This document shows, piece by piece, positions 534-50,694 of a DNA stretch of 64,000 nt. The stretch lies in the NCBI RefSeq assembly GCF_988243305.1, contig NZ_OZ547136.1. One strand, written 5' to 3'. Every line of letters starts with the position of its first letter. Position 1 is the stretch's first letter. The translations under genes were made by a program, and so were the position numbers. Below the pieces are notes generated by a model, which worked only from the letters and a program-made list of their open reading frames with translations, was not told the origin of the DNA and did no database searches.

Positions 534-647
534 ATGTTGTCCAAACAAATCCCGCTTGGCATCTATGAAAAAGCGCTCCCCGCCGGGGATGAGCTTAAGA
601 TAGCTATAACATTGAATAATAAAAATATATTTAAATATATCGTATAA
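534..647 (+). pseudogene. ulaE: ulaE 5' fragment (L-ribulose-5-phosphate 3-epimerase), first 18 codons then island-derived read-through
   Basis: MLSKQIPLGIYEKALPAG matches the UlaE N-terminus; frame then enters AT-rich island sequence and stops. Confidence 0.8.
576..589. repeat. 14-bp direct repeat CTCCCCGCCGGGGA, left island junction (att core)
   Basis: Identical 14-mer at 50681..50694; deleting 590..50694 restores a continuous ulaE reading frame (…[13 protein letters not shown]…). Confidence 0.75.
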
Positions 648-669
648 ATAGCCCCCAATATAGCCCCCA
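647..669. repeat. Tandem ATAGCCCCCAA x2 (candidate integrase arm-type sites, left end)
   Basis: Two copies 1 bp apart; same TAGCCCCCA motif occurs twice at 50522..50542 just upstream of the integrase start. Confidence 0.45.
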
Positions 670-795
670 AGGTGTAGTTGTTATACATGAAGGTATATTG
701 AACTCTGTTGAAATATTATCTGTAATGGTTCAGTGAATGCAGCATACCTACCTGTCTTGTTCCGGGACGAGACACAATATCTGTGATATATAAGT

Positions 796-1644
796 CTATA
801 CTGAAGAAGAGACTTTTCCCGCATAATGTTTCGCAATAATATCATTTAGCCGATCAACCAGTTCTGGTTTCCTGAACGTGATATGTGCGGAGCCCTTCTT
901 AAAGTATCTGATGCTGAACATCTCATCTTCATAGCACGCTTTGCCCTGAACGGAGCGGATGTGATCATCCAGACGAATAGTGATGTTTTCCCGGTTGTCG
1001 GGGATTGGTTTGCCGCTGAACAGGTGCAGCATTCTTTCCTGGTCGGCAAGTCTATCTGCCTGTTGCCCGGTGATAAGATGCAATCCCCATCGGTCCCATC
1101 TCACCAGATTGTTGACGATAATTTTATTGCCAAATTTACAGGGGGAGTTGGTTTTGTAATTCCAGCTCAGCCCTCTGAAGAGGTTGATCACACCTCGCTC
1201 AAACACTTCATCCTTATTCTGGTGCAGTTGTTCAAATGTGCTCAGGATATTCGCCTCGCTGATTTCCGGAAAATTATCGTACTCCAGTGACCGGTACCAT
1301 GTATCACGGGCCTGTGCATCCATTAATGACAGCATCCCTGAACGTTGCATCAGGTCACGCCAGATTTCGCGGTCAAGGTTGCGGGTGATAGCTTTCATTG
1401 CGGTTTCCGTTTTATCCATCAGCCAGCAGCCGCAGCGAAAATCCTGTTTCATGGCCCAGTCCCGGGCGGTTTTACCTCCAATACTTTCTGTCAGTACTGA
1501 GATTTCTGCCAGTTGCCGGATAAGTGTGTCGATTTGCAGCAGCGCACTCTTTCGCACAGCTAGAATGTGGCTGACTGAGGTGGAGCAGATAACGTCCGTA
1601 TGCCCGTTGACCACTTCCGGACGGGAGGCTGTGATTTCAGACAT
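796..1644 (-). CDS. Hypothetical protein (282 aa) at the distal end of the CP4-like backbone
   Basis: Long ORF, same strand as the backbone genes; family not recognised. Confidence 0.5.
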   Translation of the reverse strand: MSEITASRPEVVNGHTDVICSTSVSHILAVRKSALLQIDTLIRQLAEISVLTESIGGKTARDWAMKQDFRCGCWLMDKTETAMKAITRNLDREIWRDLMQRSGMLSLMDAQARDTWYRSLEYDNFPEISEANILSTFEQLHQNKDEVFERGVINLFRGLSWNYKTNSPCKFGNKIIVNNLVRWDRWGLHLITGQQADRLADQERMLHLFSGKPIPDNRENITIRLDDHIRSVQGKACYEDEMFSIRYFKKGSAHITFRKPELVDRLNDIIAKHYAGKVSSSV

Positions 1645-1728
1645 AATCGTTTTTCCTTTTTACTGATAAACGAAAACGCCAGCCGTATTCAGGCTGGCGT
1701 CAGTGGAATGAAGTCTGGTGAGTAAGAC

Positions 1729-1926
1729 TCACCGGTTCTGTTGCAGAAACTGCACCTGGCGCAGGGTACGGATATCTTCCCTGGCCTGTTCAATGCAGGG
1801 CAGCAGTGCTGCTGAATCCGTGTTATCCTCATCGTTGTCGAAGATAATCCCTGATTCGCAGTCAATATTGTCCTGCAGCCACGCAATCAGAATATCCAGC
1901 GCCGTTTCTGTGGTTAATAATTTCAT
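1729..1926 (-). CDS. Small hypothetical protein (65 aa, MKLLTTETALDILIAWLQDN…)
   Basis: In-frame internal Met of a 144-aa ORF; lies just downstream of the YeeW-like gene. Confidence 0.35.
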   Translation of the reverse strand: MKLLTTETALDILIAWLQDNIDCESGIIFDNDEDNTDSAALLPCIEQAREDIRTLRQVQFLQQNR

Positions 1927-1945
1927 CCAGTGTCTTTTGTCCTGA

Positions 1946-2434
1946 TTACCAGTCGAAAGTGGGTAAATCCGGCAGACATTCTGCGCTGGCATCCAGATGA
2001 ATGAGACTGACGCCATAACGCCGGATGAGAGTGACAACCAGACGACGGAACGTTTTTGACAGGCCCAGGCGTTTAAGCTGCAGAATCGGGTATGACCATG
2101 CATTGGCACGTAACAGATATCCGCTGCCTGTAAAATGAATCCATTCTGATTCGCCGGTGTCATTCGTCTGATGTGACAGCGAGTACAGCCAGGCGTTGTC
2201 TGTTTCCGTGATATGTGCGGTGCTGCAGCGTATACCGCTCAGGGCAGCAGAGGGGGGCATGCTGTCAGTTGCGGTCCGGTCAGATGCATCAACAACACGA
2301 AGGGAGTAGCCATTATCGCAGACCACGTTAATCAGTTCGGCAAGCTCAATACCATCGATGTCAACGACAATGCGCCCCATGTTCAGCGCCTGCACGTTAA
2401 TGCTGTCGGCCTCCAGCGTCAGGGCCAGTTTCAT
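1946..2434 (-). CDS. YeeW-like hypothetical protein
   Basis: 162-aa ORF directly downstream of cbtA, the position YeeW-type genes occupy in CP4-44-like elements. Confidence 0.5.
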   Translation of the reverse strand: MKLALTLEADSINVQALNMGRIVVDIDGIELAELINVVCDNGYSLRVVDASDRTATDSMPPSAALSGIRCSTAHITETDNAWLYSLSHQTNDTGESEWIHFTGSGYLLRANAWSYPILQLKRLGLSKTFRRLVVTLIRRYGVSLIHLDASAECLPDLPTFDW

Positions 2435-2478
2435 TGTTTCGCCTCCGGATGCTTACCCAGGATAATGTCATTTACCGT

Positions 2479-2808
2479 TCAGTAGTGGCTGCGGGTCATC
2501 AGGCCGGTTGCCCGGCGGGCCCGGAGAATATCAATGCTGTTGATTAACTGCGACGGGGCTCCTGCGCTGAATCCCGGCTGGTCAGTTCGTACCAGCGCGT
2601 ATTTTTCAACGAGAAAGTTCACCGCATCACACAGTGAAATCCCTGCCTCAATATGCTGCTCAATCACACGTTCATCAGCGAACGGTGTGTCATTCAGCGT
2701 GAGGCCATAGTGCTGGTCCAGCAGTCGGGTGAGCAGTGTCTGCCAGATGGTGACGGGAGACGGGCAGCCCGATGCCTCCCGTACGTGAGTGTCGGGTAAT
2801 GTATTCAT
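2479..2808 (-). CDS. cbtA: CbtA/YeeV-family toxin (type IV toxin-antitoxin, cytoskeleton inhibitor)
   Basis: …[52 protein letters not shown]… matches CbtA/YkfI/YpjF; start taken at MNTLPD. Confidence 0.8.
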
Positions 2809-2854
2809 CTTAAGTTCTCTGTAACAGGTGGTGATAAAGGGGAGATATCCGGGG

Positions 2855-3232
2855 TTATACGGTGATTGTGGGCGCTGCCGGTGTCGGATAAACAGCCAGA
2901 TAAACGTAACCACAACTGCCAAGGGTATCGGCTTCGCAGGTCAGCCCTTTCGCATACAGTGTGACGGTATGCTGATGACGGGGATTCAGTTCACCGCCGG
3001 TGAGCATGAGTTCCAGTTGTTTCATCAGCAACGGAAAGGCCTGGTCCAGATGGTACGCATCCGCGTCGCTGAACCGGCCTCTGATACCGGCGCGGTCGGC
3101 AAGGTAATGCAGGCGGTTACCCTCCTGTACCAGTCGGGCCCCGAAACAGGGCGTCACGGTGCAGGGCCCCCCCCACCAGGGGCGGTCGTGATTGTCGTCG
3201 GGATGCGTTGTCCCGGGGAGTGTGTCTGACAC
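2855..3232 (-). CDS. cbeA: CbeA/YeeU-family antitoxin
   Basis: [21 protein letters not shown]…[12 protein letters not shown]… matches CbeA/YafW/YfjZ; directly upstream of cbtA. Confidence 0.8.
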
Positions 3233-3307
3233 GATAAAGTCCTCACAAAAAATCGGTTAAGAATGGTCCGGTGGTGGCGATAATGCTGCTCATCAGAATG
3301 CCCTGAT

Positions 3308-3529
3308 TCAGTTCAGGGTGACGCTCATCAGCCGGACATACGGGCCAAAACTGTCCTTATGGCGTTCAGCAAACACGGCCAGCACTCCGGGAATATCCTG
3401 CACTTCACGACCGGTATACGCCCCGGCACTGCCGTGCCAGCGGTACTTACCGGTGCAGAACGGAAAAAGACGGGATGCCGGATGCTGTTGGTGAATACGC
3501 ATGGCTTCACCACGGGTGATGATTTTCAT
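3308..3529 (-). CDS. DUF987 protein (YeeT/YkfH-like)
   Basis: 73-aa ORF between RadC-like and cbeA, the conserved position of this family. Confidence 0.65.
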   Translation of the reverse strand: MKIITRGEAMRIHQQHPASRLFPFCTGKYRWHGSAGAYTGREVQDIPGVLAVFAERHKDSFGPYVRLMSVTLN

Positions 3530-3597
3530 GATGTGATACCTCTGAAGACAGAAGATAAAAGTGAAAACAGGTATGATGTGGTTGTGACGGTGACGGG

Positions 3598-4089
3598 TTA
3601 AAGCAGACCGTGTTCCGCAAAGGAGAAAACCTGGCTGCCACCGATTATCAGATGGTCCGGTACCCGGATATCCACCAGGGCCAGTGCCTGTACCAGACGC
3701 TCAGTGATAAGGCGGTCTGCCTTGCTGGGGGTGACTTCACCGGACGGGTGATTGTGCGCCAGCACCACGGCAGCGGCATTGTGGTACAGGGCGCGTTTAA
3801 TCACCTCCCGGGGATGGACTTCTGTGCGGTTGATGGTGCCAGTGAAGAGGGTTTCACCGGCAATCAGCTGATTCTGGTTGTTCAGGTACAGCACCCGGAA
3901 CTCTTCACGCTCCAGCCCTGCCATGTTCAGAATCAGCCATTCCCGTGCCGCACGGGTGGAGGTGAAGGCCACGCCGGGTTCATGAAGATGGCGGTCCAGG
4001 GTTTTCAGGGCCCGTTGAATGAGGCTGCGCTCGCCGGGCGTCATCTCTCCGGGCAGAAAGGAAAGCTGTTGCATTGTACTTCTCTCCAT
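3598..4089 (-). CDS. RadC-like JAB/MPN-domain protein (YeeS/YkfG/YfjY family)
   Basis: HNHPSG JAMM motif; conserved CP4-type context. Confidence 0.85.
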   Translation of the reverse strand: MERSTMQQLSFLPGEMTPGERSLIQRALKTLDRHLHEPGVAFTSTRAAREWLILNMAGLEREEFRVLYLNNQNQLIAGETLFTGTINRTEVHPREVIKRALYHNAAAVVLAHNHPSGEVTPSKADRLITERLVQALALVDIRVPDHLIIGGSQVFSFAEHGLL

Positions 4090-4563
4090 TCAGTCGATGA
4101 TGCGCATAATGGCGCTGCATTCCGGATGCTGCAGGGCGTAATCCCGCAGCCGGTAATAATGGACCGTCATGGCATAACACTCCGTACGACAGGCATGATG
4201 ACTGTACGTCATCAGACAGGCAGCAATGCCGGCAGCTTCCGGACTCATTTCAGCGCGGTTACCGTTCATGGCATTGAACAGTACCCATGTTTCGTCATCA
4301 TCGTCATCCGGTTCGGGTGCCATAAATGCCCCGCCGTTGTTCAGGGTGTACAGATTCCAGATACCACCGCAGTAGTCTTCGCACAGACGGTCCATCCAGC
4401 CGAAGACACGGGGCTCCAGGGTCACCCACTGTGGAATGAGGCCAAAGTGCTGCGGCCAGAAGCTGATGCGCTGTTCATCAGGGACGAGGGTGGCAACCAG
4501 TTGTTGCAGGTCAGTCTCCGGTGCACAGGCTGAAGAGGTGGTGTTCTGAGACAATGTTTTCAT
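4090..4563 (-). CDS. Antirestriction protein, KlcA/ArdB family (YfjX-like)
   Basis: Acidic DDDDDE stretch and conserved context upstream of radC-like; start taken at MKTLSQ. Confidence 0.7.
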   Translation of the reverse strand: MKTLSQNTTSSACAPETDLQQLVATLVPDEQRISFWPQHFGLIPQWVTLEPRVFGWMDRLCEDYCGGIWNLYTLNNGGAFMAPEPDDDDDETWVLFNAMNGNRAEMSPEAAGIAACLMTYSHHACRTECYAMTVHYYRLRDYALQHPECSAIMRIID

Positions 4564-4656
4564 GTATGAAATCCTTGTAATGTGAATAAATGAGAGGGAG
4601 TAAAGGCCGGGGGCTGACAACATCACGTTCATCACTGAGCGTGAGACCCGGTAATG

Positions 4657-4902
4657 TCAGGGATGAATGATATTCGGCTGAAATTCCGGACAGCCGTACG
4701 CGTAACCGTTCCGGTCACAGACGGATGGCCAGATGCCATTGCCTGTACTCAGTCTGCACAGACTGAGTTCTCCGGGACGGTAAAGCAGACGGGTACACCA
4801 GGCGCACAGGTCATCATCAGAAATGGAACGACACCCCGGCAGCGCCTCCGGGGCGTCGGGTGATTCTGGTACCTGAATCACGCCTTCAGGGATATGTTTC
4901 AT
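4657..4902 (-). CDS. Small hypothetical protein
   Basis: ORF between DUF932 and antirestriction genes; family not recognised. Confidence 0.3.
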   Translation of the reverse strand: MKHIPEGVIQVPESPDAPEALPGCRSISDDDLCAWCTRLLYRPGELSLCRLSTGNGIWPSVCDRNGYAYGCPEFQPNIIHP

Positions 4903-5723
4903 CAGCGCATACTCTCCAGCAGCGTTTCTGCCATTACCCACAATGCGCGGTTGAGCTTAATATCGGTGTCGATGCTGTGAATGGCACGGGTGTGGATACG
5001 TTTTCCTCTGGCACTGCGCCCGGAAATCCCCCCTTTCAGCATATTCTCCTGGATGGTCTGATAAGCACTCCACAGGTCCTTTCCGTAATCCTCCCGGCGT
5101 CGTGGCGTCAGAATGTCGGCGGTGGTGACGGGCTGATGTTCGTCACCATAACGGTAAGTCAGTGCCGCCTGTGCCAGCGCCTGGCGTGCCGGTGGCGGCA
5201 GGACCAGCGACTGCATGGCATCACGCTTCTCCTCTATCCGGTCAAAAACCCCCACCACCTCGTAAGCCCCTTCGATAACTTTCTCCACTACATTTCCCCG
5301 GTGCGGAACACGCACTTCCCCCAGAGACTGACCACAGACGCACCCGTTCTGGCAGACGAACCTGAAGTAACCCGGCAGCATCTGGTAGCTGGATGAACCG
5401 TCATGAGAGTTGAGCAGAATAATTTCAGGGACATGCTGACCGGTTATCTGTCCGGCCCGCCGCAGACGCAGCATGTGTTTTGTGTATTCCCGGCGACCCG
5501 GGTCACGCACACGTGTCTGGCAGGCGAAGAATGGCTGAAAGCCTTCCCGCTGCAGGCTTTCCAGTACGGTGATGGTGGGAATGTACGCATAGCGTTTACT
5601 GCGGGAAGTATGCCGGTCTTCACCGAAAATACTGGGAACATAGTGCATCAGTTCTTCGTGTGTCAGCGGACGGTCACGGCGTATCTGGTTTGCAGCATAA
5701 CCAAAACGACTGGCTAGTCGCAT
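4902..5723 (-). CDS. DUF932-family protein (YfjQ/YafZ/YkfF-like)
   Basis: 273-aa ORF with the recalled family signature (…EIILLNSHDGSSSYQ…); conserved CP4-type gene. Confidence 0.7.
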   Translation of the reverse strand: MRLASRFGYAANQIRRDRPLTHEELMHYVPSIFGEDRHTSRSKRYAYIPTITVLESLQREGFQPFFACQTRVRDPGRREYTKHMLRLRRAGQITGQHVPEIILLNSHDGSSSYQMLPGYFRFVCQNGCVCGQSLGEVRVPHRGNVVEKVIEGAYEVVGVFDRIEEKRDAMQSLVLPPPARQALAQAALTYRYGDEHQPVTTADILTPRRREDYGKDLWSAYQTIQENMLKGGISGRSARGKRIHTRAIHSIDTDIKLNRALWVMAETLLESMR

Positions 5724-6115
5724 AATTTGCTCCTTATCGGTGGTTAAGATTTACTGGTGTAATAAATGAAAAAGCCACGTCTCCCGGAGAAGACGCGGCC
5801 TGATGGACGAAATTAATGAGGTTTATTGTCTGAGAAGACCGTCACTGGCGAACCTTCCGGCGTCAGTCTCTGCGTTGCGGATAACCCGACGGAAATGAGT
5901 TCCCTGGTCATCGTCGATAAACACATTGCGGTAAGCTGTTGTGATGACAACAGCCTGCTCGCGTGAGAAAGGGACTTCGGGCAATAAACGTGACATACAA
6001 CCAGACCTGTATTTGGTTCCCTGAAAATATAAGTCCCTGTCATCATGGCAGAGCCGTATTTACTTTTGATATCAATAAATTAATAACGCGAAGATGAACC
6101 GCATAACTTACGCCT

Positions 6116-6379: not shown

Positions 6380-6561
6380 TCCGTTTAACCCAACAGGGTT
6401 TAATGCTTTGTCGATAGCAGCTCTGTAGGTAGCGTCACCTTCGTATAACTCGTACGTTGTTGGACATGCACCAGGCTGGTCAGCCCGGGCTTTTGAGTCG
6501 CATTTAAGTGTCTGATTTACAGTGGCGGCGTTTGTGTCAGGACTTAGGTAATGACTCCAAC

Positions 6562-7065
6562 TTATTGATAGTGTTTTATGTTCAGATAATGCCCGATGAC
6601 TTTGTCATGCAGCTCCACCGATTTTGAGAACGACAGCGACTTCCGTCCCAGCCGTGCCAGGTGCTGCCTCAGATTCAGGTTATGCCGCTCAATTCGCTGC
6701 GTATATCGCTTGCTGATTACGTGCAGCTTTCCCTTCAGGCGGGATTCATACAGCGGCCAGCCATCCGCCATCCATATCACCACGTCAAAGGGTGACAGCA
6801 GGCTCATAAGACGCCCCAGCGTCGCCATAGTGCGTTCACCGAATACGTGCGCAACAACCGTCTTCCGGAGCCTGTCATACGCGTAAAACAGCCAGCGCTG
6901 GCGCGATTTAGCCCCGACATAGCCCCACTGTTCGTCCATTTCCGCGCAGACGATGACGTCACTGCCCGGCTGTATGCGCGAGGTTACCGACTGCGGCCTG
7001 AGTTTTTTAAGTGACGTAAAATCGTGTTGAGGCCAACGCCCATAATGCGGGCTGTTGCCCGGCAT
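6562..7065 (-). CDS. insB: IS1 InsB (expressed as InsAB' by frameshift)
   Basis: 167-aa IS1 transposase ORF overlapping insA. Confidence 0.9.
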
Positions 7066-7259
7066 CCAACGCCATTCATGGCCATATCAATGATTTTCTG
7101 GTGCGTACCGGGTTGAGAAGCGGTGTAAGTGAACTGCAGTTGCCATGTTTTACGGCAGTGAGAGCAGAGATAGCGCTGATGTCCGGCGGTGCTTTTGCCG
7201 TTACGCACCACCCCGTCAGTAGCTGAACAGGAGGGACAGCTGATAGAAACAGAAGCCAC
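6984..7259 (-). CDS. insA: IS1 InsA
   Basis: 91 aa, [23 protein letters not shown]… zinc-finger/HTH InsA. Confidence 0.9.
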
Positions 7260-7425
7260 TGGAGCACTTCAAAAACGCCATCATACACTAAATCAGTAAG
7301 TTGGCAGCATCACCTAAGTGCTTTTACGATGAATTTCATGATAACTCTCCTTATGACATTAATAAATGCGTTAATCTTAAATCTCACCCAGGTAATATAT
7401 ATCTGAAAATATTTTCAACAACACC

Positions 7426-7473: not shown

Positions 7474-8544
7474 TTATTTAATCCGGGCCATCGCGCTTCT
7501 CAGTGCCAAATCTGCCTCTTCCGTTATCTCCAGACTTTTCTGCAACACCGTTTCTGACCGGGACAGTGCCTGACGTGCTGCCAGCGGTTTCCGGATATGC
7601 TCCATCGTCAGCATCGTGTCCTCGTAGCCCTGCTGACGCCAGGCGTCGGTATGTGCCGACGTGAAACTGAGCAGACCGCCACTGTTGCCACCATCACCTG
7701 CATATTTCAGCCTTTTCCGGGGACGGATCTCAAGGATTGTGGTGTCCGGAAAAGCCTGGCGATCCCATAAAGAACCGTCACTCAGATGCGACACAATCAC
7801 CATATTGCATCCGGCATCGACCAGAGGCGTTACAGGGGTATTTCCCTGCATATTTCGCCATCCTCCCATACCACCATCACCGAACATTGTCCCCTGAACC
7901 TCACGGGGACGGAACAACAGGGGCAGTGCGGCTGACGCAAGCAGAGCCTCTTTCTGCTGTCCGCGGGGCAGACTCTGGATATGCTGAAAAACGGCGTTTT
8001 TCGTGGTTCCGGAACCCAGTTCAGCACGAATGCAGTCAATAATATCCTGCATGCCCCCTTCTGTGGGGTACAGCGACACATACAGCGGTAGCCCGTCTGC
8101 CAGAGCATCTGTATCAAGATAATGATCCATCAGCGCTGTCAGGGGCCCATCTGACAACAACGGCTGAGTCATCGGATTGTCGAAGCCGTTGATTATCGAT
8201 ATATGGCGAAGAAGTGTCGTAAGCAGTGCTCCTGCACGTCCGGGGATCTGGCAGAGGTTCATTGCCTGGAACAATTTTTTCAGCAATGAAAAGTAAACCG
8301 ATCGGTTTACCGACAGCACCTGATTATTCCCAAGATGATCCCAGAGCGCCTCCAGGCGTACGGCAGCTTCTGACAGATCGGGAGAGGCCGCGATAATGGC
8401 ACCATTGAATGCGCCAATGCTGGCCCCTGAAACCATGCTGATCTGTGTACCACACTCTGCCAGTGCCTTAACCACTCCCGCCTGATAAGCGCCCACCGCC
8501 CCACCGCCGGACAGCACCAGCCCTGTTTTTATTTCTATACTCAT
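7474..8544 (-). CDS. Patatin-like phospholipase (356 aa)
   Basis: GGGAVGAYQAG glycine-rich oxyanion motif, GASIGA (GxSxG) nucleophile, DGG catalytic Asp; start overlaps upstream stop (ATGA). Confidence 0.85.
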   Translation of the reverse strand: MSIEIKTGLVLSGGGAVGAYQAGVVKALAECGTQISMVSGASIGAFNGAIIAASPDLSEAAVRLEALWDHLGNNQVLSVNRSVYFSLLKKLFQAMNLCQIPGRAGALLTTLLRHISIINGFDNPMTQPLLSDGPLTALMDHYLDTDALADGLPLYVSLYPTEGGMQDIIDCIRAELGSGTTKNAVFQHIQSLPRGQQKEALLASAALPLLFRPREVQGTMFGDGGMGGWRNMQGNTPVTPLVDAGCNMVIVSHLSDGSLWDRQAFPDTTILEIRPRKRLKYAGDGGNSGGLLSFTSAHTDAWRQQGYEDTMLTMEHIRKPLAARQALSRSETVLQKSLEITEEADLALRSAMARIK

Positions 8545-9446
8545 GCAGCCCCCTTCTGAAATATTTCATCGACCATACTTTCAGAGAGGCGTTCTGCAGA
8601 GCAGAGACGGGGCATGCGAACCGGTAAGTGTTCTGCAGCCTGCGTGGTTGACCAGATCACCGGATGCTGCTCTTCACTGCACCAGTCCCCCAGCCAGTTA
8701 ATCGCGTCATGCCACTCGTTATCTGCCTGCTCCCGGCCCTGACCACCAAGCCAGTCCAGAGTGTTCAGACGCACGGTTGCACTACCGCCACTCTCCTGTG
8801 CCATCTGCGTTAATGCTTTATGTCTGAGAATATCCAGTAGCTGGTTAACCTGGCCTGTTTCGCCCTGACGTATCACATCACCAAACGCGCCCCAGCGAAG
8901 CTCTTCAAGTGCCACATAACAACGTCCGGCAGGGGAAAATGACGCATATCGCCCGGCGCTCCACCAGGAGAATATCTGCTCAAGATGTAACTGCGCCCGC
9001 TGAACCAGGTCAACACGGTGGAGTTTTTCTTCAAGATGATTCAGTTTCTGGTGAACCTGATCGGCCAGGGTGAGTAACTGCTCCCGCGTATCTGCGGAAT
9101 AATGCGCCAGCCTGGCAGTATCACTGACCAGTGAACTGACCCTGTCGTTTACCCGGGTAATCGCGTAGTTTGTGGTGGCAAGTGACGTTGTCAGCTCCGT
9201 CAGCCAGCGCAGGGACGCCTCAACGCCCTGTGCAAGCGAAGCATTGATGGCATTCTGCCGTGCAGCACCTTCGCCGCTCAGCCCCTCTTTTAACCGCCGG
9301 AAGAACGTGCGCTCTCCGGCCGTACGGATATGCTCCTGTGCAACATCAATACCGTTTGCGAAATCAACCACAAATTTTTCAGGAAGACAGGTGAGTACCT
9401 GACATACCCGGTTATCAGCAATTTGTTGAATAAATGGTGAAGTCAC
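8541..9446 (-). CDS. Hypothetical protein, partner of the dynamin-like GTPase (possibly YjcZ-like), 301 aa
   Basis: ORF overlapping both neighbours by 4 bp; no TM segments; YjcZ-like assignment is only by synteny with crfC(yjdA)-yjcZ. Confidence 0.6.
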   Translation of the reverse strand: MTSPFIQQIADNRVCQVLTCLPEKFVVDFANGIDVAQEHIRTAGERTFFRRLKEGLSGEGAARQNAINASLAQGVEASLRWLTELTTSLATTNYAITRVNDRVSSLVSDTARLAHYSADTREQLLTLADQVHQKLNHLEEKLHRVDLVQRAQLHLEQIFSWWSAGRYASFSPAGRCYVALEELRWGAFGDVIRQGETGQVNQLLDILRHKALTQMAQESGGSATVRLNTLDWLGGQGREQADNEWHDAINWLGDWCSEEQHPVIWSTTQAAEHLPVRMPRLCSAERLSESMVDEIFQKGAA

Positions 9447-11827
9447 AGCATTGTCTCCAGTTCTTCCCTTAACGCCTTACTGTCAGTAATGAGCTCAGGA
9501 ACCCTTTCATTTAACGCCTGAAGACGCCCGGTCAGCCGTTCCTGCGCCTGCTGATCGCGTTTATGATCTTCAGAGCTCTGAATCAGCGTGTTACGCAGCT
9601 GTTCAACTTTCTCCCTGAATGTACAGAAAAAGGCATCGATTTCCTGGCGGACGGGCTGGTTAATATCCTGCTCAATGGATGCCTGCAGCTCCCCGAAATA
9701 TGCCCGGGTCAGTGACATCACTTCCTCTCTGACCTTGTTGATATTGATCACGCTGCGGCTCACATCCACACTGTACTCTTTCCAGCCCCAGTCACTGGTG
9801 TTTGCCCATCGACAAAGCGTACCCCAGACACCATCCTGTCGACAGCGACGGGTTACTGTCTCCGTTCTTTCCTCCATAAGCGCGCTCAGATTTGTTTTTA
9901 CTGCGAGCCGGGTCTGTAACTGGCTGACTGCCGGAAAACTGATTTTTACAGTGAAACCTTCATCCTCCAGACGGGCATTGATGCGTCCGGCAATATTTTC
10001 TGTGGCGTACAGGGCCGTACCACGAAAACCTGTTTCAATACCCCTGACGATTTTTTCCAGTTCAGGACGGAACTGTGCTTCAGCCTCACGGTGCAGGCTG
10101 GTCACGGTCGATTCGATTTGCGTCATCAGTTCAAGGGCTTCCCTGCGATCACTGAATTTTATTTCGGGGCTGTCCGGATCAAAGTCCCGCATCCTGTCAT
10201 GCTGATTTCCGGTTCCGAAAATATCGTGAAAGAAAGCGAATGCGTTTCTCTCCCGGGGCTGCGCTGAATTTTCTTCCTCCAGCATTTGCTGTTCTTTGCG
10301 TTTACCGCTTCTGAAATAGTCATTCAGCTCCTCTTCCAGTGAGGTGCAGACCCCCGTCAGTAATTCCCGGGTTCTGGCATCGATCTCCTCCATGGCCATT
10401 CTGACATCAGCGGTCACCTGCTCCTGACAGTCCGCGATTTCCCGGATATCCGCAAGCAGGCTGGTGATATGCGACTGCAGTGACTGAATGCTTTGCTGTA
10501 GCCCCTGATGGCGTAATGACAGATATTCGCTGACATTTTCCGCATTCTGCATCAGTTTTGCGGCGGCAGAATCAACCGCCAGTGCCGCCGCTCTGGAATG
10601 GGAGCTCTGTATGACTTCCGTTATCAGTTGATCGATAAGTGAGCCTTCCCACAGGTCTGTCGCCCCTTCGGTTGCCATTTCACTGTCTTTACAGACGTAT
10701 TCTTTTTTCATGCGACCGAAGGCTTCCCTGACAAAATCATCGACCCAGGCTTCATCAACAGGAAGGGTTCTGTTTTTCCGTAACTCATGAAGCGCACGGT
10801 TAGCCAGGTACGCCTGACGTGATGAGCCTGGATAAACGCGGGAGGCGGGCAGCACATCGCTGTTCAGCATTGCCGGAACTTTCTGGCGTACGGCATCTGC
10901 CCCATCGCCATTGCGGTCTTTCTCATCAAATTTATTGACCAGCACAAACAGGCGGCCAGCTGATACGTCAGCAATGGCATTAAGCTCTTTACGGACGTCT
11001 TCATCCGCTTTTGAGTTCATCTGGGTGTAATCCATCACCGCCAGCACCGCAGAGGCTTTCTGCAGTTGATCCCGCATCATCACTTCCATCTGCGGTTGTC
11101 CGGCCTCATTAGGGCCGGGGGTATCCAGCAGTGTGAGTGTTCCCTGGCATGGATCCATCCCCACCAGATGGCTGAATTCCACGTCGATCACCGGCAGTTT
11201 CTGCACTTCTGCGTATTCATCAAAAGGAAACTCACTCCCCATTGCCGCAGCAAGGCGAACCAGATCGTTTAACGATGCCAGTCCGGTAAAAATTTCCTCC
11301 TCCCCGTGGTATTCATTTTTGAGCCAGCCATCATTTGCCAGAATATCCAGCAGTTCGCAGGTATCCCCGGTTTGCTGCAGGGTCTGTGCGACTTGCTGTC
11401 CTGCCGGGGTGTCGAGTTTTTGTTTCAGTGTGCTTAATAAATTGCGGACGGGCTGAATATGTTCCAGATGGAGGACCGGCTCAGTTTTTCCGGGAACGTG
11501 GCGGATGAGCGTCGGTACAGAGGTCATGGGGCGGTTACGGTTAGGCAGAATTTCCTGCCCCACAATGGCGTTGATGGTGGTTGATTTACCTGCTTTCATC
11601 GTGCCGACAACAGCCAGCACCATCTCCCTGCGGGCGGTTTTGATTTGTTCGCCCTCCAGCTCCTCAATTCTTTTCAGTGCTTTCTGTTTATCAAAAAGCA
11701 GTCTGTTTTCGTTCTTACTGTCAGATAACACATCCGGCTCATCAACCATTTGCCGGAGCAGATTAATGTTCAGTTGCAAAAGTCGGTCGGCTTCATCACA
11801 AAGCAGGGCGATGTTCTTTTCGTGCAT
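9443..11827 (-). CDS. Dynamin-family GTPase, CrfC/YjdA-like bacterial dynamin-like protein (794 aa)
   Basis: G1 GTMKAGKST, G3 DTPG, G4 NKFD; N-terminal GTPase region resembles E. coli CrfC as recalled; long coiled-coil-rich C-terminus. Confidence 0.85.
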   Translation of the reverse strand: MHEKNIALLCDEADRLLQLNINLLRQMVDEPDVLSDSKNENRLLFDKQKALKRIEELEGEQIKTARREMVLAVVGTMKAGKSTTINAIVGQEILPNRNRPMTSVPTLIRHVPGKTEPVLHLEHIQPVRNLLSTLKQKLDTPAGQQVAQTLQQTGDTCELLDILANDGWLKNEYHGEEEIFTGLASLNDLVRLAAAMGSEFPFDEYAEVQKLPVIDVEFSHLVGMDPCQGTLTLLDTPGPNEAGQPQMEVMMRDQLQKASAVLAVMDYTQMNSKADEDVRKELNAIADVSAGRLFVLVNKFDEKDRNGDGADAVRQKVPAMLNSDVLPASRVYPGSSRQAYLANRALHELRKNRTLPVDEAWVDDFVREAFGRMKKEYVCKDSEMATEGATDLWEGSLIDQLITEVIQSSHSRAAALAVDSAAAKLMQNAENVSEYLSLRHQGLQQSIQSLQSHITSLLADIREIADCQEQVTADVRMAMEEIDARTRELLTGVCTSLEEELNDYFRSGKRKEQQMLEEENSAQPRERNAFAFFHDIFGTGNQHDRMRDFDPDSPEIKFSDRREALELMTQIESTVTSLHREAEAQFRPELEKIVRGIETGFRGTALYATENIAGRINARLEDEGFTVKISFPAVSQLQTRLAVKTNLSALMEERTETVTRRCRQDGVWGTLCRWANTSDWGWKEYSVDVSRSVININKVREEVMSLTRAYFGELQASIEQDINQPVRQEIDAFFCTFREKVEQLRNTLIQSSEDHKRDQQAQERLTGRLQALNERVPELITDSKALREELETML

Positions 11828-11884
11828 TATTTAACCTTCCTGAGACGCATTTTCATGACAACCACGGAGGAGGTCATTTACTAC

Positions 11885-11910
11885 AAACGATCGTTTATAA
11901 CGATCGATAT
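11885..11910. promoter_or_regulatory. Palindromic operator-like motifs upstream of the dynamin operon (AAACGATCGTTT, CGATCGAT)
   Basis: Perfect 12-bp palindrome plus adjacent palindrome in the 199-bp gap between the GTPase stop and the dynamin start. Confidence 0.3.
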
Positions 11911-12026
11911 ACTCTATTAACTTGAGAAACACAACGCAAGGGGACAACCCGGGTATGGCTGCGTTTGCATAGTGTTTTCATGGAGTTAAAAATCTGTAAC
12001 AATAGCCTGGTACATCACCACCGGGT

Positions 12027-12899: not shown

Positions 12900-12983
12900 A
12901 CATGTATTCCCGGTGAAAAAAGACAAAACCCCCGCACACCGGAAAGGTGGCGGGGGACTCACAGAGATAATATATGTCTGAAA

Positions 12984-30239: not shown

Positions 30240-30274
30240 TATTTATGGTGACTACCTGGTGAAGCGTCGAGTAA

Positions 30275-31009: not shown

Positions 31010-31105
31010 ATATTGATTTATATGGATTAGAGCAAATGAGTTTTTAATTTAACACTTTCTTTTAATAATGAAAATATTTAATTAAATCTATTATGTAAAG
31101 GGGGA

Positions 31106-32139: not shown

Positions 32140-34882
<2,743 letters not shown>

Positions 34883-37425: not shown

Positions 37426-37502
37426 TGTAATGTCCTTTGAGTGTAACTATCTATCGCGACTCTTTTGGTCGCGATAGATCAATAAGTATTTAACGTAATT
37501 TA

Positions 37503-39098: not shown

Positions 39099-39161
39099 AA
39101 TTCTCCATGACGATGTCACATGGTGACACCGCCTGTAAGGGAAGAGGTTTTATCTTTAAAT

Positions 39162-40346: not shown

Positions 40347-40378
40347 GGTGTTCCTCCGTTATTATTTAAATTAGAAAA

Positions 40379-41593
40379 TTACTGCTGAAGTACCGGATAC
40401 TGAGTCCCCCAGACAATATTGCGATATGATTCTGGGTCAGTGTCACCTTCAGTGCTGATTAGCAAAACACGGGAATGTGAATCCAGCCCCAACTGTTCAC
40501 GGGTTTGCCTAAATGTAGGGGAGGTCATCAGTAACGCCAGAAGCCCTGTGGTTACTGCCCCTGACTCTCCAGAAATAATCTGCGGATCTCCTGCTAACGG
40601 ATTTCCCAAAATACGCATACCCAACATTGCAACCTCGTCAGGACAGGAGGCAAAGGCTGTAGCATAGTCACGTAGCAGCTTCCAGCCGATACTGTTAGCC
40701 TCGCCACAAGCCAGTCCTGCCATGAGTGTCTGCAAATCCCCCCCTACTGCCACGGCATTTCCATCTTTCGCCAAGGCTGAGCGGTAGAGGCAATCGGCAA
40801 TTAATGCTTCTACAACGATTACTTTTGGACGATTATCCCCCCAAGCAGCAGTCACCATTCCCTGGACCATACCCGCAAACGAACCAACCCCCGCTTGGAC
40901 AAAGATATGTGTTGGTGCTACCTGATGGAGTTGAGCCATAGCCTCCAGCATCAACGTGCTATAGCCCTGCATGATCCATAGAGGAATTTTTTCATACCCT
41001 TCCCAAGCGGTGTCCTGAACAACAATCCAGCCGGATTTATCTGCCTGCTCTGCGGTCATTCGAACAGCATCGTCATAGTTCATATTGACAATTTCAGCCG
41101 TAGCACCTTCATTGCGAATTGATGACAGGCGTTGTTGCGAAGACCCCTTTGGCATATAAACTACTGCATTTTGCTTTAGCTGACGCGCCATCCACGCTAC
41201 TCCCCGCCCGTGGTTACCGTCAGTAGTAGTAGCAAAGGTAACTGTTTTCAGATAATGGCGCACATCGTCACTAGTCATGATATCAAACGACAATTCATCA
41301 ATCTCTTTCCCTAGTAATTCTGCGATATGACATGCCATGGCATAGGCGCCACCCAGCACTTTGAAGGCTTTTAGGCCAAAACGCTGAGACTCATCTTTGA
41401 GATAGATCTTTTTTATCCCTAATTTTTGTGAAAGCGCAGGTAATGTATAGAGCGGCGTTGGCTCGTAGCCTGGTATTGTCCGATGAAAATTCAATGCTTT
41501 TACCAGCTCATTGTGACTAAATGAAGCTAGTGGTGCGCTAGGTTGCTGAGTAAATTGTGTCTGGTTAATAAAAAAGGATATTTTTTCCTGCAT
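40379..41593 (-). CDS. PLP-dependent diaminopropionate ammonia-lyase-like enzyme (DpaL/YgeX family)
   Basis: Family-level resemblance to YgeX-type ammonia-lyases; first gene of the operon. Confidence 0.75.
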   Translation of the reverse strand: MQEKISFFINQTQFTQQPSAPLASFSHNELVKALNFHRTIPGYEPTPLYTLPALSQKLGIKKIYLKDESQRFGLKAFKVLGGAYAMACHIAELLGKEIDELSFDIMTSDDVRHYLKTVTFATTTDGNHGRGVAWMARQLKQNAVVYMPKGSSQQRLSSIRNEGATAEIVNMNYDDAVRMTAEQADKSGWIVVQDTAWEGYEKIPLWIMQGYSTLMLEAMAQLHQVAPTHIFVQAGVGSFAGMVQGMVTAAWGDNRPKVIVVEALIADCLYRSALAKDGNAVAVGGDLQTLMAGLACGEANSIGWKLLRDYATAFASCPDEVAMLGMRILGNPLAGDPQIISGESGAVTTGLLALLMTSPTFRQTREQLGLDSHSRVLLISTEGDTDPESYRNIVWGTQYPVLQQ

Positions 41594-41675
41594 GATAAGA
41601 CCTCATTGTACTGGTATCTCGCACCCTGTAATCAGAGAAATCCAAAGATGCCTTCTGTATGACTATTCACTAAAA

Positions 41676-41691
41676 AGCAAAATGCGTACCA
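41676..41691 (-). promoter_or_regulatory. Candidate sigma-54 (-24/-12) promoter for the dpaL-like operon
   Basis: Minus strand reads TGGTAC-GCATT-TTGCT (GG-N10-GC spacing) about 85 bp upstream of the dpaL-like start; sigma-54 activator encoded divergently. Confidence 0.5.
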
Positions 41692-41973
41692 GTTTTTTAT
41701 TAGAGTTAGTAAAAAGTAACATATATTTCTTTAACCTTTTCATTTCAATGAATTAGGAAGTCATTGCGTCATAATGAATCCCCCTCCCTAGTATTGGCCT
41801 TATTTCAATGCCTGATAAATTCTCATTAATGAGAATTTATGTGATCAATCAAAAGAAAATAATAAAAACACAAATAAAACATATAGATATATTGATCTTT
41901 TTCAAGTAAATTTTTCCTAATATCATATAATTTCTCATTTTTCTGAGAATTTTATACTGACTGGAGGAGAACC

Positions 41974-43719
41974 ATGATTTCAGTACTGAGAAACATTCAG
42001 GATGATATATGTAATTATGCCGATGCTATCTCTGGCATAATCGGAACTGATGTAGAAATCATTGATGAGTCATTAATGCGCATAGCTGGTACAGGTCAAT
42101 ACAGGTATATGCTCAATGAGAGTGTGGTAAAAAATGGTTACATTTATCGGCATGTATTACAGGTACGAAAAACAGTTCTGATCACAAATCCAGGAGAACA
42201 TCCTCTCTGCCAGTTATGTGAGAAAAACCATTATTGCTCGGAAATGTTAGATTTGAACACACCCATTTTTCTCAATGAGCGTGTCATCGGAGTCATTGGA
42301 ATTATTTGCTCTACCCAGACACAGCGTAAAATCTTGTTGAACCAGATTGATAAATTTATTACCTTTATTGAGCAAATTGCTGCGATGATTTCCAGTAAAG
42401 TCTTCGAATGTCTGGAACGCCTGCGGGCCCAAGAAACTCTCAGTACATTTCGTCGATTGATTGATGCGATGGATCGCGGTGTTGTAGCTATTGATGGTAA
42501 GGGCCGAATCTGGCACGCTAACAACTCAGCCGATCGCATACTTAACCGCAAGGTTCAAGGTATTACGTTAACGATTGAAACAACCGGGGACATTCTATAT
42601 GGAGATGAAGAAGCATGGTTGACGCTGGAAGGAGAAAGATACCATGTGTTGTGCAAACAAATTTCTCTTTCCTCATTAGATAATGATCGACTCACCATGA
42701 TTATCTTTCGTGATGCACATGACTATCTGAGCACAATAGTTTATCCTTACGAATCTGATGCTCAAGTGCGATTAATTGGACATTCACCACTAATGGAACA
42801 ACTCAGAAGCACCGTTAGAAAAATCGCCAGTAGTTGTGCCAGCGTACTGATCACCGGAGAAAGTGGCTCAGGTAAAGAAGTTGTGGCATTTGCTATTCAT
42901 CAGAATAGTCCACGTAAATCCGCTCCTTTTGTAACAATCAACTGCGCTGCAATCCCAGAGCAACTGCTGGAAAGCGAGCTATTTGGCTACGTGAAGGGGG
43001 CATTTAGTGGGGCGAATCCTAAAGGACGTATAGGTAAATTTGAACTGGCCAATGGGGGAAGTCTCTTTCTCGATGAGATCGGAGATATGCCGCTCCATCT
43101 GCAGGCCAAGCTGCTTAGAGTTCTTCAGGAAAAAAACATTACCCGCGTTGGCTCTAATAATATTATCAATATTGATGTGCGCATTATTGCTGCGACCAAC
43201 AAAAACATCCGTGAAATGGTTGAGAGTAATCAGTTTCGAGAAGACCTTTATTATCGCCTGAATGTGGTTCCTCTAGTAATTCCTTCTTTACGGGAACGAC
43301 GGACTGATATTGCCCTCCTTGCACAATATTTTGCTGATGAGTTCTCTGAAAGCTATCAACGTCCAGTGAAAAAACTCCCCGATGATATAATTAACCATCT
43401 TTACGCTTGGCACTGGCCTGGTAACATCCGTGAATTACGTAATGTCATTGAGTATATTTTTGTTATGCGTGGTGAAACTACTGATATCAACGTCAGCCAT
43501 CTTCCCCCTTATCTGCTCAATGTAGTGGACAACAGCAAAACTGTTATGACAATCAACACCAAGCAGCTACTGAGTCAGGGAAGACAAGCGGAAAGGAGGG
43601 CAATTGAAACTGCATTACAACGATATAGCCCAAGTGGAGAGGGGAAAAAACAAGCTGCCGCTGAATTAGGAATAAGTATTGCTACACTATACCGAAAGAT
43701 AAAACAATATGGTTTATAG
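41974..43719 (+). CDS. Sigma-54-dependent transcriptional activator (YgeV-like)
   Basis: AAA+ Walker [15 protein letters not shown] and ESELFGY sigma-54 interaction motifs, C-terminal HTH; GGAGGAG RBS. Confidence 0.85.
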
Positions 43720-48745: not shown

Positions 48746-49263
48746 CAAAGCCATAGCTCAGGTGCGTGCGGTCCGCACGGCGCGGAGCCTGAGGGCTTCA
48801 CGGCGGAGGATATGCGGACCATCGGGCGCTACCTGCACTGCGAGGCGAATTGGAACATCGACTCGGACTTGAGCCTGTGAGGGGGGCCGTCCTCGGGAGA
48901 AGTTTTTCTGCGAAATAACTATGCGCCGACGGACGAACACTCGTTCGTGTGGCCTATGGCCCAGGGCAAAGGCTGGGGGGCCCCTATTAAGTTGTCAAGA
49001 ATGTTTATTACACCAGCGGGGTATAAAAAGTACCGTCACGCATCATGGCGAATAGAACGTCGCAGCGCCTTGTTCACAGTGTTTTCACTCGTGGTTATCT
49101 GTACCCGTGAATATCAGACCATTGTCACCAGCCCATGCCTGTAATTCTGTCAGAATGGCTACAGCCTGTTTGTTGGGTGGTACAAGATGCAGTGCCCTCT
49201 GGTTCCCTCTGATGAGAGTCCTGGCGGGGTGAACAAATAAAAAAGAAAACATAAATAAAACCA

Positions 49264-49292
49264 TCCGGCTTTTGGGGCCGGATGGTTATTCA
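49264..49292 (-). terminator. Rho-independent terminator downstream of the integrase gene
   Basis: AACCATCCGGC-N7-GCCGGATGGTT hairpin followed by a T-rich run on the minus strand. Confidence 0.6.
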
Positions 49293-49321
49293 TTATTTCT
49301 GTGTCACTGAATTTTCATTCA

Positions 49322-50503
49322 TCAGGTCTGCTCAGAAAGTGAATCAATGTAGTCAGCGTACCATTGCATCATTTCACGGCGACCATCGAGATACTGTGCG
49401 TGGTTATAGGTACCGCGCATGATGTTTTTATCAACATGGGCAAGCTGGAGTTCAATCCAGGCAGAGCTGAAATCATGGTCATGGAGAATGGTACTGAAAG
49501 TATGCCGAAAACCATGAGCTGTAGTGAATGTATGCCAGCCAACTTGTTGAAGAAACTCATTGATGCAACCACGGCTACGAGGTTGATTACCCCTGTATAC
49601 ACCAGGAATAACCAGATCTGAGTTACGGGGATTTGTGATTATTTTTATATCTTTCAATAACATTTGAGCCTGATGAGAAAGAGGAACAACATGCGGCCTC
49701 CGCATTTTCATTCTCTCTTTTGGGATTACCCAGAGGGCATTGGTAAAATCAATTTCATCCCAAGTAGCCAGGCGTAATTCTCCCGTTCGAACAGCAGTCA
49801 GAACCAGTATCCGCGTTACCAGAGACATAAAATTTCCTGAAACTTTCATTTGGTACATGAAAGCTCCTAACTGTTCTTCAGATAGCATCCGTCTCTGCTG
49901 TTTTTCAGGATGCAGAACAACACTGCTGAGAGTCGATGCTGGGTTAATAGTGGCGCGCCCCGTCGCAATGGCATAATCAAATATTTGAGAACAGAGCTGA
50001 CGAGTCTTACGTAACGCTTCAAGTTTGCCATTCCTTTCAATAACCCTCAGTGCATTCAATATTTCCAAGGGGCGAATATCAGCCACAGGACGCTTCCCTA
50101 GCGTGGGATTAATATGATTCTCGAATCTTGCACGCTGGTCCGCTAAATAACCCGCAGTCCAACGACAAGCCATATGTGTGAACAACTCTTCTGCAAGAGT
50201 ACAAAATGTGCATGCAATACTTTCTCTTAGTGCATGTTTACTCGCCTGTTTTTCATATGAAGGATCTTTTCCTTCAGCCAGGAGTTTACGTGCGTCATCC
50301 CGTTTCTGACGCGCCAGAGCCAGTGATATGCCTGGATAGACACCAATCACCAATTTCTTTTCTTTACCCGCAAATCGATACTTCAGATTCCAGTAACGAG
50401 CGCCAGATTTCTTGATAAGAAGGTAAAGTCCTTGACCATCAGAAAGTTTGTAATCCTTGTCAGCGGGTTTGGCCGACTCAATTTGTCGAACAGTAAGTGG
50501 CAT
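49322..50503 (-). CDS. int: Tyrosine integrase, P4-type
   Basis: 393 aa; N-terminal …KLSDGQGLYLLIKKSGARYWNLKYRFAGKEK… and C-terminal HGFRHTF…LAHVD…Y catalytic signature; 177 bp from the right junction. Confidence 0.9.
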   Translation of the reverse strand: MPLTVRQIESAKPADKDYKLSDGQGLYLLIKKSGARYWNLKYRFAGKEKKLVIGVYPGISLALARQKRDDARKLLAEGKDPSYEKQASKHALRESIACTFCTLAEELFTHMACRWTAGYLADQRARFENHINPTLGKRPVADIRPLEILNALRVIERNGKLEALRKTRQLCSQIFDYAIATGRATINPASTLSSVVLHPEKQQRRMLSEEQLGAFMYQMKVSGNFMSLVTRILVLTAVRTGELRLATWDEIDFTNALWVIPKERMKMRRPHVVPLSHQAQMLLKDIKIITNPRNSDLVIPGVYRGNQPRSRGCINEFLQQVGWHTFTTAHGFRHTFSTILHDHDFSSAWIELQLAHVDKNIMRGTYNHAQYLDGRREMMQWYADYIDSLSEQT

Positions 50504-50521
50504 GATGTTAACTCCGAAAAG

Positions 50522-50542
50522 TAGCCCCCAGAGTAGCCCCCA
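50522..50542. repeat. TAGCCCCCA x2 direct repeats just upstream of the integrase start (candidate arm sites or operator)
   Basis: Same motif and orientation as the pair at 647..669 at the other island end. Confidence 0.45.
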
Positions 50543-50680
50543 AAATCATCTTGATGCTCATGGAAGATGGTTTACATCCAGAGTAAAAGAATTTCTGATA
50601 ATACCTTATTTTAACGTGTGTTAAAGGGGATGAAGAGAGTTCTGTTGAAATCAGTCGAAATAAATAGGGCTTAATAAATC

Positions 50681-50694
50681 CTCCCCGCCGGGGA
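50681..50694. repeat. 14-bp direct repeat CTCCCCGCCGGGGA, right island junction (att core)
   Basis: Identical to 576..589. Confidence 0.75.

Follow-up and report, generated by a model that had tools for sequence, protein, structure and literature searches.

A genomic island of 50.1 kb was found inside the ulaE gene of the ula operon, which serves L-ascorbate (vitamin C) use, in a stretch of 64,000 nt from the assembly GCF_988243305.1 (contig NZ_OZ547136.1). This whole stretch is herein referred to as the window, and all coordinates refer to it. The island is a mosaic of the Escherichia coli CP4/pathogenicity island (PAI) type, with an integrase gene at one end and a DUF4942/CbtA-CbeA/antirestriction module at the other. 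Its entry into ulaE is a site-specific integration and not an artefact. The best explanation for the whole set of data, to which we assign a probability of about 0.85, is that a site-specific P4-like island, with an integrase from a hairpin-targeting clade, entered ulaE at a mimic of such a hairpin and could do so in either orientation.

The use of ulaE as an island site has already been published, and the bare finding is routine. The ula operon (ulaE-ulaD) is one of six listed integration sites of papGII PAIs, another being the gln operon (glnP-glnH), and the integrases are specific for the insertion site (Biggel et al., 2020, PMC7686366). The island GI-S21EC-ulaE has been described in a strain of sequence type 131 (Alvarez-Fraga et al., 2022, PMC8764528). 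The published islands share with the window island the chromosomal site ulaD|ulaE, a site-specific integrase, and mosaic cargo. In contrast to them, the window island has no pap or afa operon and carries sialic-acid and diaminopropionate clusters instead. In the searchable text on ula-site islands, no description of the att (attachment site) core, the palindrome, the orientation, or the integrase clade was found. The palindromic core, the two orientations, and the hairpin/BoxC-associated integrase clade go beyond the descriptions found; they rest on direct sequence comparisons. An earlier reading of the window alone (herein, the original prediction) included neither the prior publication, nor the palindrome that permits both orientations, nor the hairpin-specialized integrase clade.

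Insertion of the Island into the ulaE Gene

The 14-mer CTCCCCGCCGGGGA is present as an exact repeat at positions 576-589 and 50681-50694, just as the original prediction had it. Only 0.01 matches are expected by chance, and no third copy was found on the same strand of the window. The ATG codon of ulaE is located at position 534, and the first copy of the 14-mer ends, at position 589, after 18 codons and 2 nt. Beyond this position, the ulaE frame enters AT-rich foreign DNA and is closed by a stop after 37 codons. The equivalent fusion open reading frame (ORF) in other genomes is labeled "hypothetical protein" by the Prokaryotic Genome Annotation Pipeline (PGAP). Removal of one repeat copy together with the intervening DNA was predicted to restore the UlaE frame, and it does: after excision of the segment 590-50694 (50,105 bp), positions 534-589 joined to 50695 onward form an open frame of 284 aa. 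Residues 2-284 of the rebuilt protein align with the crystal structure of E. coli UlaE (PDB 3CQH, E = 1e-190).

The integrase gene lies 177 bp inside the right junction and points away from it, also in agreement with the original prediction. No tRNA or transfer-messenger RNA (tmRNA) gene, the 3′ end of which is the typical target of the P4-like family, was found in the 64-kb window. The integrase matches the NCBIfam model NF007246 over residues 2-387 (E = 1e-75) with a score of 254.6, which is below the curated cut-off of 434. A homologue with 97% identity (P0001) and all listed relatives carry the precomputed domains PF13356, PF22022, and PF00589, that is, the P4-like architecture. Integrases of phages are at most 43% identical to the window integrase over the full length; the best of them (41-43%) are of the IntS and DUF4102 types.

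Both arms flanking the island cores contain a pair of the motif TAGCCCCCA. In the 64 kb, this motif has four copies, found only in the arms, two per arm, 12 bp apart and in one orientation; none of 100 shuffled sequences reached four copies. By analogy with the lambda/P4 paradigm, these pairs may be arm-type sites for the N-terminal domain of the integrase. The motif (C/T)TCTGTTGAAAT is also present in each arm. Directly upstream of the integrase ATG, a pair of GGGGGCYA motifs is kept across the integrase clade.

Recurrence of the Insertion in E. coli Genomes

Of the 5,426 complete E. coli genomes surveyed, 5,350 have the reconstructed empty site without interruption. Nissle 1917, for example, has a single core copy (gcgCTCCCCGCCGGGGAGtgc). 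Such sites bear out the expectation of an empty site in related genomes. Islands at the ulaE site were found in 72 genomes, 63 of them in the same orientation as in the window (forward) and 9 inverted; ulaE is split in about 1.3% of the complete genomes of this species. The two junctions of the window co-occur in all 63 forward genomes, with cargo of differing size. S21EC, the host of GI-S21EC-ulaE, is among these forward carriers. The distance between the junctions at the ulaE site ranges from ~38 kb (VTB96816v) to ~130 kb (an O111:H8 strain), and thus the site has been reused by islands with different cargo.

The original prediction held that the same DNA at another locus, with other flanks, would speak against site-specific integration. 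Such DNA was found for the cargo only: ~33 kb of it, 98% identical, is located beside setC in the strain BR1220, in an island that we take to be at the selC locus. The integrase/att module, on the other hand, stays tied to ulaE. The BR1220 match was therefore rejected as a refutation, since the cargo is shared and the integrase/att module is not. It reflects the exchange of mosaic cargo among islands that is usual in E. coli. Other parts of the cargo are common to islands in many more genomes, including CFT073.

An assembly artefact, or a rearrangement mediated by insertion sequences (ISs) or by homology with a short repeat present by chance, could also split ulaE. The many IS copies in the island and the ~33 kb of cargo at the selC locus of another strain are in line with such an origin. 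However, the junctions are identical to the base in 72 complete genomes that were obtained independently, in many laboratories, and that differ in cargo; neither junction is abutted by an IS end. The integrase lies ~177 bp from the core, as in the tRNA-targeting relatives, many of which have the tRNA end ~160-200 bp upstream of the integrase. The recurrence of the junctions, together with the 5,350 empty sites, effectively refutes an artefact or an IS-mediated origin, which was therefore rejected as having a negligible chance of being true.

Palindromic Core and Two Orientations of the Island

The attB site is the 15-bp palindrome CTCCCCG-C-CGGGGAG, which codes for the UlaE residues 15-19 (LPAGE). 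The flanking bases lengthen this palindrome to an imperfect 10-bp stem, and the predicted fold of the single-stranded DNA has an energy of -9.8 kcal/mol (z = -3.6).

Inverted islands were found with two queries, one per inverted junction; each query matched exactly 9 genomes, the same 9. In one of them, DETEC-P1056, the integrase gene is the closest to that of the window (99.5% DNA identity) and sits beside ulaD, not beside the 3′ part of ulaE. The junction in this strain (...aataaatcCTCCCCGGCGGGGAGcgctttttcatagatgcc...) links the same arm next to the integrase with the ulaE 5′ end in reverse complement. Base by base, the inverted junction reads ...aataaatcCTCCCCGGCGGGGAGcgctttttcat... Identical integrases are present in both orientations. 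Thus, WP_021513337.1 was found in the forward islands of VTB96816v and the O111:H8 strain as well as in the inverted island of CE0026a, and WP_001131670.1 in the forward islands of CP55_Sichuan and UPEC 26-1 as well as in the inverted islands of SCPM-O-B-9427 and DLI.5a. In the subtype of integrases with 90% identity, AR_0085 and PK8276 are inverted, while PKF4 and others look forward as judged solely from the features under the matches. Because the core is symmetric save for its central base pair, one and the same island and integrase can be found either way round.

Both junctions were read in 9 carrier genomes and in the window, and both cores matched the motif in 8 of these 10. In the ula direction, the central base of the core is C wherever the core matched the motif, that is, at both junctions in these 8 genomes. 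Seen from the island, the central base is C in forward and G in inverted islands and is never mixed within one genome. The sequence TCTCCG was found in DLI.5a at the distal junction alone; core position 3 therefore behaves as island-side, outside the exchanged segment.

For the mechanism, namely the position of the overlap, the rule of orientation, and the present-day mobility, we infer the following. The island would enter by conservative site-specific recombination mediated by its own DUF4102 (P4-like) tyrosine integrase. The attP site would carry 14 of the 15 bases of the palindrome, which would produce the flanking direct repeat. The central overlap would comprise ~7 bp, CCG-C-CGG, and would have to match between attP and attB; its lone asymmetric position, the central base pair, would then decide the orientation.

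Alternatively, the two orientations could arise by flipping after integration, with the integrase recombining attL and attR through the near-symmetric core and the island being inverted in place instead of excised. The integrase proteins and arms, identical in both orientations, and the palindromic core agree with such flipping, and inversion in place gives the host-oriented central base at both junctions as readily as oriented integration does. Like integration in reverse, it requires that a mismatch at the center of the core be tolerated. The 9 inverted islands fall into at least three classes of size and carry two subtypes of the integrase; flipping would thus have had to occur several times independently. 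Flipping is considered unlikely, although it is the most serious competitor of oriented integration.

Several points weigh against oriented integration by the integrase of the island. A simple reciprocal exchange with a mismatched central base should give junctions that differ, yet the same host-oriented base is present at both junctions in 8 genomes. Such an exchange also does not explain UPEC 26-1, where both repeat copies have the variant CTCCCCGCTGGGGA (CCGCTGG), while otherwise identical empty B2 sites, for example that of Nissle 1917, have CCGCCGG. This C-to-T change is missing from the nearest empty sites, and a search of 5,351 genomes gave no empty site with a 100% match to the variant. 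The twin change may mean either that attP alleles co-vary with the host or that repair homogenizes the junctions. The reconstructed attP was absent from plasmid and phage records, apart from one irrelevant match of 67 bp, and no excised circle was seen. No transfer genes were seen in the window island, which is also heavily decayed (IS1, IS66, IS3, IS630, a group II intron, and pseudogene remnants); thus, this copy may no longer move. Apart from these points, the truncated UlaE, which PGAP annotates as intact, may retain activity.

Target Sites of the Integrase Clade

Relatives with at most 55% identity to the window integrase were analyzed in species-representative genomes. In 49 of 60 cases, these integrases lie ~160-390 bp (mostly 160-300 bp) downstream of a tRNA gene, the tRNAs being those for Phe, Arg, SeC, Thr, Gly, Asn, and Ser. 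This proportion supports the earlier statement that a protein-coding target is unusual for P4-like integrases. No relatives with more than 55% identity were found in the species-representative genomes scanned, and this set serves as a tRNA-associated outgroup. The tRNA-targeting P4-like/CP4 islands (pheV, pheU, selC, leuX, thrW, and ssrA) have the same integrase domains, an integrase usually 160-300 bp from the junction, the same distal DUF4942/CbtA-CbeA/antirestriction module, and shared cargo. In contrast, the ulaE island is inserted at a palindrome within a protein-coding gene, which it does not restore, and it is found in either orientation; identity between its integrase and the sampled tRNA-associated relatives does not exceed 55%.

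Among the 12 examined relatives with 63-90% identity, none has a tRNA gene in the scanned loci or annotated beside the integrase. The chromosomal junction is in all 12 of the form CCCC-N3-GGGGAG or CTCCC-N3-GGGAG. The integrase genes from Enterobacter, Serratia, and Lelliottia (62-77% identity) are located after iap, ppiC, a glutathione S-transferase gene, acs, nrdD, or a flavin mononucleotide (FMN) reductase gene, and the junction is CCCTCTCCC-ACA/ACC/GTC/ACG-GGGAGG. One identical integrase of Enterobacter ludwigii (P0011) was found both after acs and after nrdD, in both cases within the first hairpin of a BoxC/TMECO-type repeat. Similarly, WP_072648864.1 (81% identical to the window integrase) is present as an identical protein after ycjD, zntA, and gcvP in three E. 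coli strains, and a near-identical one is present after ypfG. The strains with these sites are 135, 23CRST013, HCM-27C-1, and TUM9803, and the junction is CCCTCGCCCC-TCT/TTT-GGGGAG|GATCTATT, read on the integrase-proximal side; the islands of strain 135 and of DETEC-P1056 are longer than 50 kb. For the gln-site integrases (83% identity), the junction is CCCTCTCCCC-TCT/GCC-GGGGAG|GATCTATT. In the sense of the integrase, the ulaE junction reads CTCCCC-GGC/GCC-GGGGAG|GATTTATT, with the same stems and the same island-side continuation as in the clade. A neighbor-joining tree placed the hairpin-associated integrases (63-99% identity) in one clade, apart from the tRNA-associated ones; this tree is rough, being built from identity distances without support values.

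The chromosomal halves of the junctions correspond to the first hairpin of the BoxC/PIT/TMECO repeat, CCCTCGCCCCTCTGGGGAGAGGGTTAGGGTGAGGGG. These repeats have been tabulated for the K-12 strain, and their loci were described as hot spots of large-scale variation where integrases were never found (Holder et al., 2015, PMC4666352). The glnH-glnP spacer of K-12 contains a BoxC-like copy. The ulaE core CTCCCC-GCC-GGGGAG matches the first hairpin of the repeats, CGCCCC-TCT-GGGGAG, and sister integrases are located exactly in that hairpin at ycjD, zntA, gcvP, ypfG, and glnH. However, the ulaE site is coding and has no third purine block GGGTGAGGG, which defines the triplex motif. Instead of the three-block motif CCCTCNCCCC-loop-GGGGAGAGGG-loop-GGGTGAGGG, only the inner hairpin CTCCCCGCCGGGGAG was found there. 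For these two reasons, the ulaE site is a mimic and not a copy of BoxC, and codons 15-19 of ulaE look like a chance mimic of the hairpin targeted by the clade. The branch with 90-99% identity was found only at ulaE among the loci examined, other sites not having been searched systematically.

In the best explanation, this clade has given up tRNA genes and recombines at GC-rich C(T)CCCC-N3-GGGGAG hairpins, in the normal case at the first hairpin of the BoxC/PIT/TMECO repeats; the ulaE gene would have been hit as a mimic of this hairpin. More broadly, we tentatively propose, at slightly less than even odds, an undescribed clade of P4-like integrases that exchanged tRNA genes for the short GC hairpin CCCC-N3-GGGGAG. 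Any BoxC/TMECO repeat, and also chance mimics such as ulaE, could then receive large islands, and one central base pair would set the orientation. BoxC/TMECO repeats as multiple alternative sites of sister integrases would provide a testable mechanism for the large-scale variation at these loci. If true, such a clade could explain the hot spots at which no mobility genes had been noticed, and the junctions suggest that integrase-borne islands contribute to this variation. The search for islands with virulence or fitness genes (pap, afa, kps, ter, iol, and sialic-acid clusters) in E. coli and its relatives would also gain new loci.

The stem-loop targets could also be recognized by the integrase as a folded hairpin or cruciform, with exchange of one strand pair and resolution by replication, as in integron attC sites or CTX phage/XerCD. 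Such a pathway would explain the host-like repeat copies, including the identical host-oriented central base at both junctions wherever both cores matched. The targets of the clade agree more in the stem-loop geometry than in the loop sequence (GCC, GGC, TCT, TTT, ACA, ACC, GTC, and ACG), the ulaE site folds as single-stranded DNA with the energy given above, and BoxC elements are reported to form intrastrand structures. On the other hand, the integrase has the usual domains of the lambda/P4 type, one of them for arm binding, and the island has arm repeats at either end. These features speak for a classical intasome on duplex DNA, and neither a single-stranded intermediate nor a replication module is evident. 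Recognition of a folded strand is thus improbable, and recombination of duplex DNA by the integrase is preferred.

At the gln site, the loop is TAT in K-12, where the site is empty, and TCT (UTME-7) or GCC (strain 2/0) at the integrase-proximal junction. The evidence on the host or island origin of the core loop is conflicting, as seen from these gln-site loops and from UPEC 26-1. The GCC loop is of the ulaE type, so att cores of the ulaE and BoxC types may possibly cross-react.

Some genomes contain more than one integrase of the clade. PK-F-10122 (NZ_CM148631.1) has two islands, one inverted in ulaE and the other with the junction sequence of the ycjD BoxC site of strain 135. In SCU-387 (NZ_CP051688.1), ulaE contains a forward island, and a further integrase matches those of the gln site.

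Consequences for ulaE and ulaF

In the forward orientation, two in-frame stop codons (TAA TAA) are located directly upstream of the right core. No sigma-70-like promoter was found in a scan of positions 50300-50800, which is weak negative evidence. Because of these stops, and with no promoter detected in the arm, the ulaE remnant and ulaF are left without their native start and promoter. Forward insertion deprives ulaE of codons 1-14 and the translation start and separates ulaE′-ulaF from the ula promoter. A UlaE protein that lacks 14-15 N-terminal residues is likely impaired, and loss of UlaE function with a polar effect on ulaF, as the original prediction reasonably supposed, is likely. The paralogue SgbU of E. 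coli may buffer the loss of UlaE.

In the inverted orientation, the distal arm provides an in-frame start, either TTG (MIKFI-PAGEC...) or, in AR_0085, ATG with a leader of 33 residues, and the DUF4942 operon of the island reads toward ulaE-ulaF. Expression of the downstream genes could therefore differ by orientation, since the integrase arm adjoins the ulaE remnant and ulaF in one case, and the outward-reading DUF4942 operon in the other. PGAP labels the remnants as UlaE without a pseudogene flag: 271 aa with an ATC start in forward islands (50678-51493 in the window), 274 aa with a TTG start in inverted islands, and 303 aa in AR_0085. Annotation-based surveys would miss the disruption of ulaE because these remnants are given as ordinary UlaE.

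SXT/R391 elements insert into the 5′ end of the protein-coding gene prfC and rebuild the gene. Islands with dusA-specific integrases (PMC4482086) resemble the ulaE island in that an element with a tyrosine integrase occupies the initial codons of a gene for housekeeping or metabolism. Elements of the dusA/prfC/icd type supply a replacement gene end, and none was found in the orientation of the window. Thus, unlike the dusA and prfC elements, the forward ulaE island supplies no new 5′ end, whereas the inverted one supplies a possible replacement, an in-frame ORF starting with TTG or ATG.

Other Features of the Window

The features of the window are listed in Table 1. The sialic-acid cluster has a low GC content of about 0.40. 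In the metabolic cluster, the NCBIfam matches TIGR03528 (589 bits) and NF009555 (476 bits) are both over the cut-off. The AlpA-like protein, a candidate directionality factor, is encoded 33 kb away from the integrase. Further content of the island includes IS3 fragments, an IS630 fragment, and pseudogene debris.

Table 1. Features of the window and of the island in ulaE, with coordinates, strand, and supporting evidence.
Feature	Position	Strand	Evidence
ulaD, 3′ part, cut by the window start	3..524	+	frame-3 translation ends RSIAELWG*; matching DNA annotated ulaD in E. coli genomes
ulaE 5′ fragment (534-589) fused to island DNA, 37-codon ORF	534..647	+	translation MLSKQIPLGIYEKALPAGDELKIAITLNNKNIFKYIV*
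attL core, first copy of the 14-bp direct repeat	576..589		exact repeat
Distal att arm: TAGCCCCCA twice (649-657, 661-669), CTCTGTTGAAAT (703-714)	590..795		motif search
DUF4942 gene, distal end of the island	796..1644	-	ORF; annotated DUF4942 at this junction in all listed genomes
CP4/PAI-type end module: DUF957, DUF5983, CbtA toxin, CbeA antitoxin, DUF987, JAB domain protein, antirestriction protein, DUF932, DUF905	1729..5990	-	98% DNA identity to the BR1220 island (PGAP annotation); also in VTB96816v
IS1 copy in the island	6546..7314	-	ORFs; IS1A annotated at the matching place in BR1220
Patatin-like phospholipase, RdcB-family protein, dynamin-family protein, GTPase-family protein	7474..12962	-	ORFs; identity to BR1220
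Candidate excisionase/AlpA-like helix-turn-helix (HTH) regulator	15799..16059	-	PHROG "excisionase and transcriptional regulator" families (E = 2e-10, 2.7e-9); HTH regulator in BR1220
IS66-family element: tnpC twice (one partial), tnpB, tnpA	19095..22533	-	ORFs; BR1220 annotation
Sialic-acid utilization cluster: N-acetylneuraminate (Neu5Ac) lyase, N-acetylmannosamine (ManNAc) kinase, major facilitator superfamily (MFS) transporter, two alpha/beta hydrolases, KdgM porin, Neu5Ac epimerase, nanR (minus strand), sialate O-acetylesterase	23195..32095	+	ORFs; annotation
Group II intron: domain V/VI RNA (32613-32699), ltrA reverse transcriptase (32703-34226)	32613..34226	-	Rfam RF00029, 64.9 bits; ltrA annotation
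Metabolic cluster: MFS transporter, amidohydrolase, YgeY-family hydrolase, diaminopropionate ammonia-lyase (all minus strand), sigma-54 activator (plus strand)	36139..43719		NCBIfam
Integrase, intact ORF of 393 aa, DUF4102/P4-like tyrosine recombinase	49322..50503	-	translation; NCBIfam; domains of homologues
Integrase-proximal att arm: TAGCCCCCA twice (50522-50530, 50534-50542), TTCTGTTGAAAT (50640-50651)	50504..50680		motif search
attR core, second copy of the 14-mer inside the 15-bp palindrome CTCCCCG-C-CGGGGAG	50681..50695		exact repeat and symmetry
ulaE 3′ part, last base of codon 19 through the stop, own start missing	50695..51493	+	sequence
ulaF	51493..52179	+	sequence; annotation

The IS1 copy of the island (6546-7314) is 99.1% identical to a second, chromosomal copy in direct orientation (55267-56035), apparently located between yjfZ and ytfB. 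A deletion of ~49 kb would result from recombination between the two copies, and most of the island would be lost together with the remnant of ulaE, ulaF, and rpsF-rplI.

The block of three genes on the minus strand at 7474-11827 (patatin-like phospholipase, RdcB-family protein, and a dynamin-family protein of 794 aa) is conserved in many E. coli islands and looks like a candidate defense or membrane-remodeling module. The group II intron adjoins IS3 remnants, and the same arrangement was found in BR1220 and in YL3 strains. A match to the small RNA STnc100 (Rfam, 103 bits) was found on the minus strand at 46464-46662, in a decayed region with few genes that separates the IS630 fragment from the integrase.

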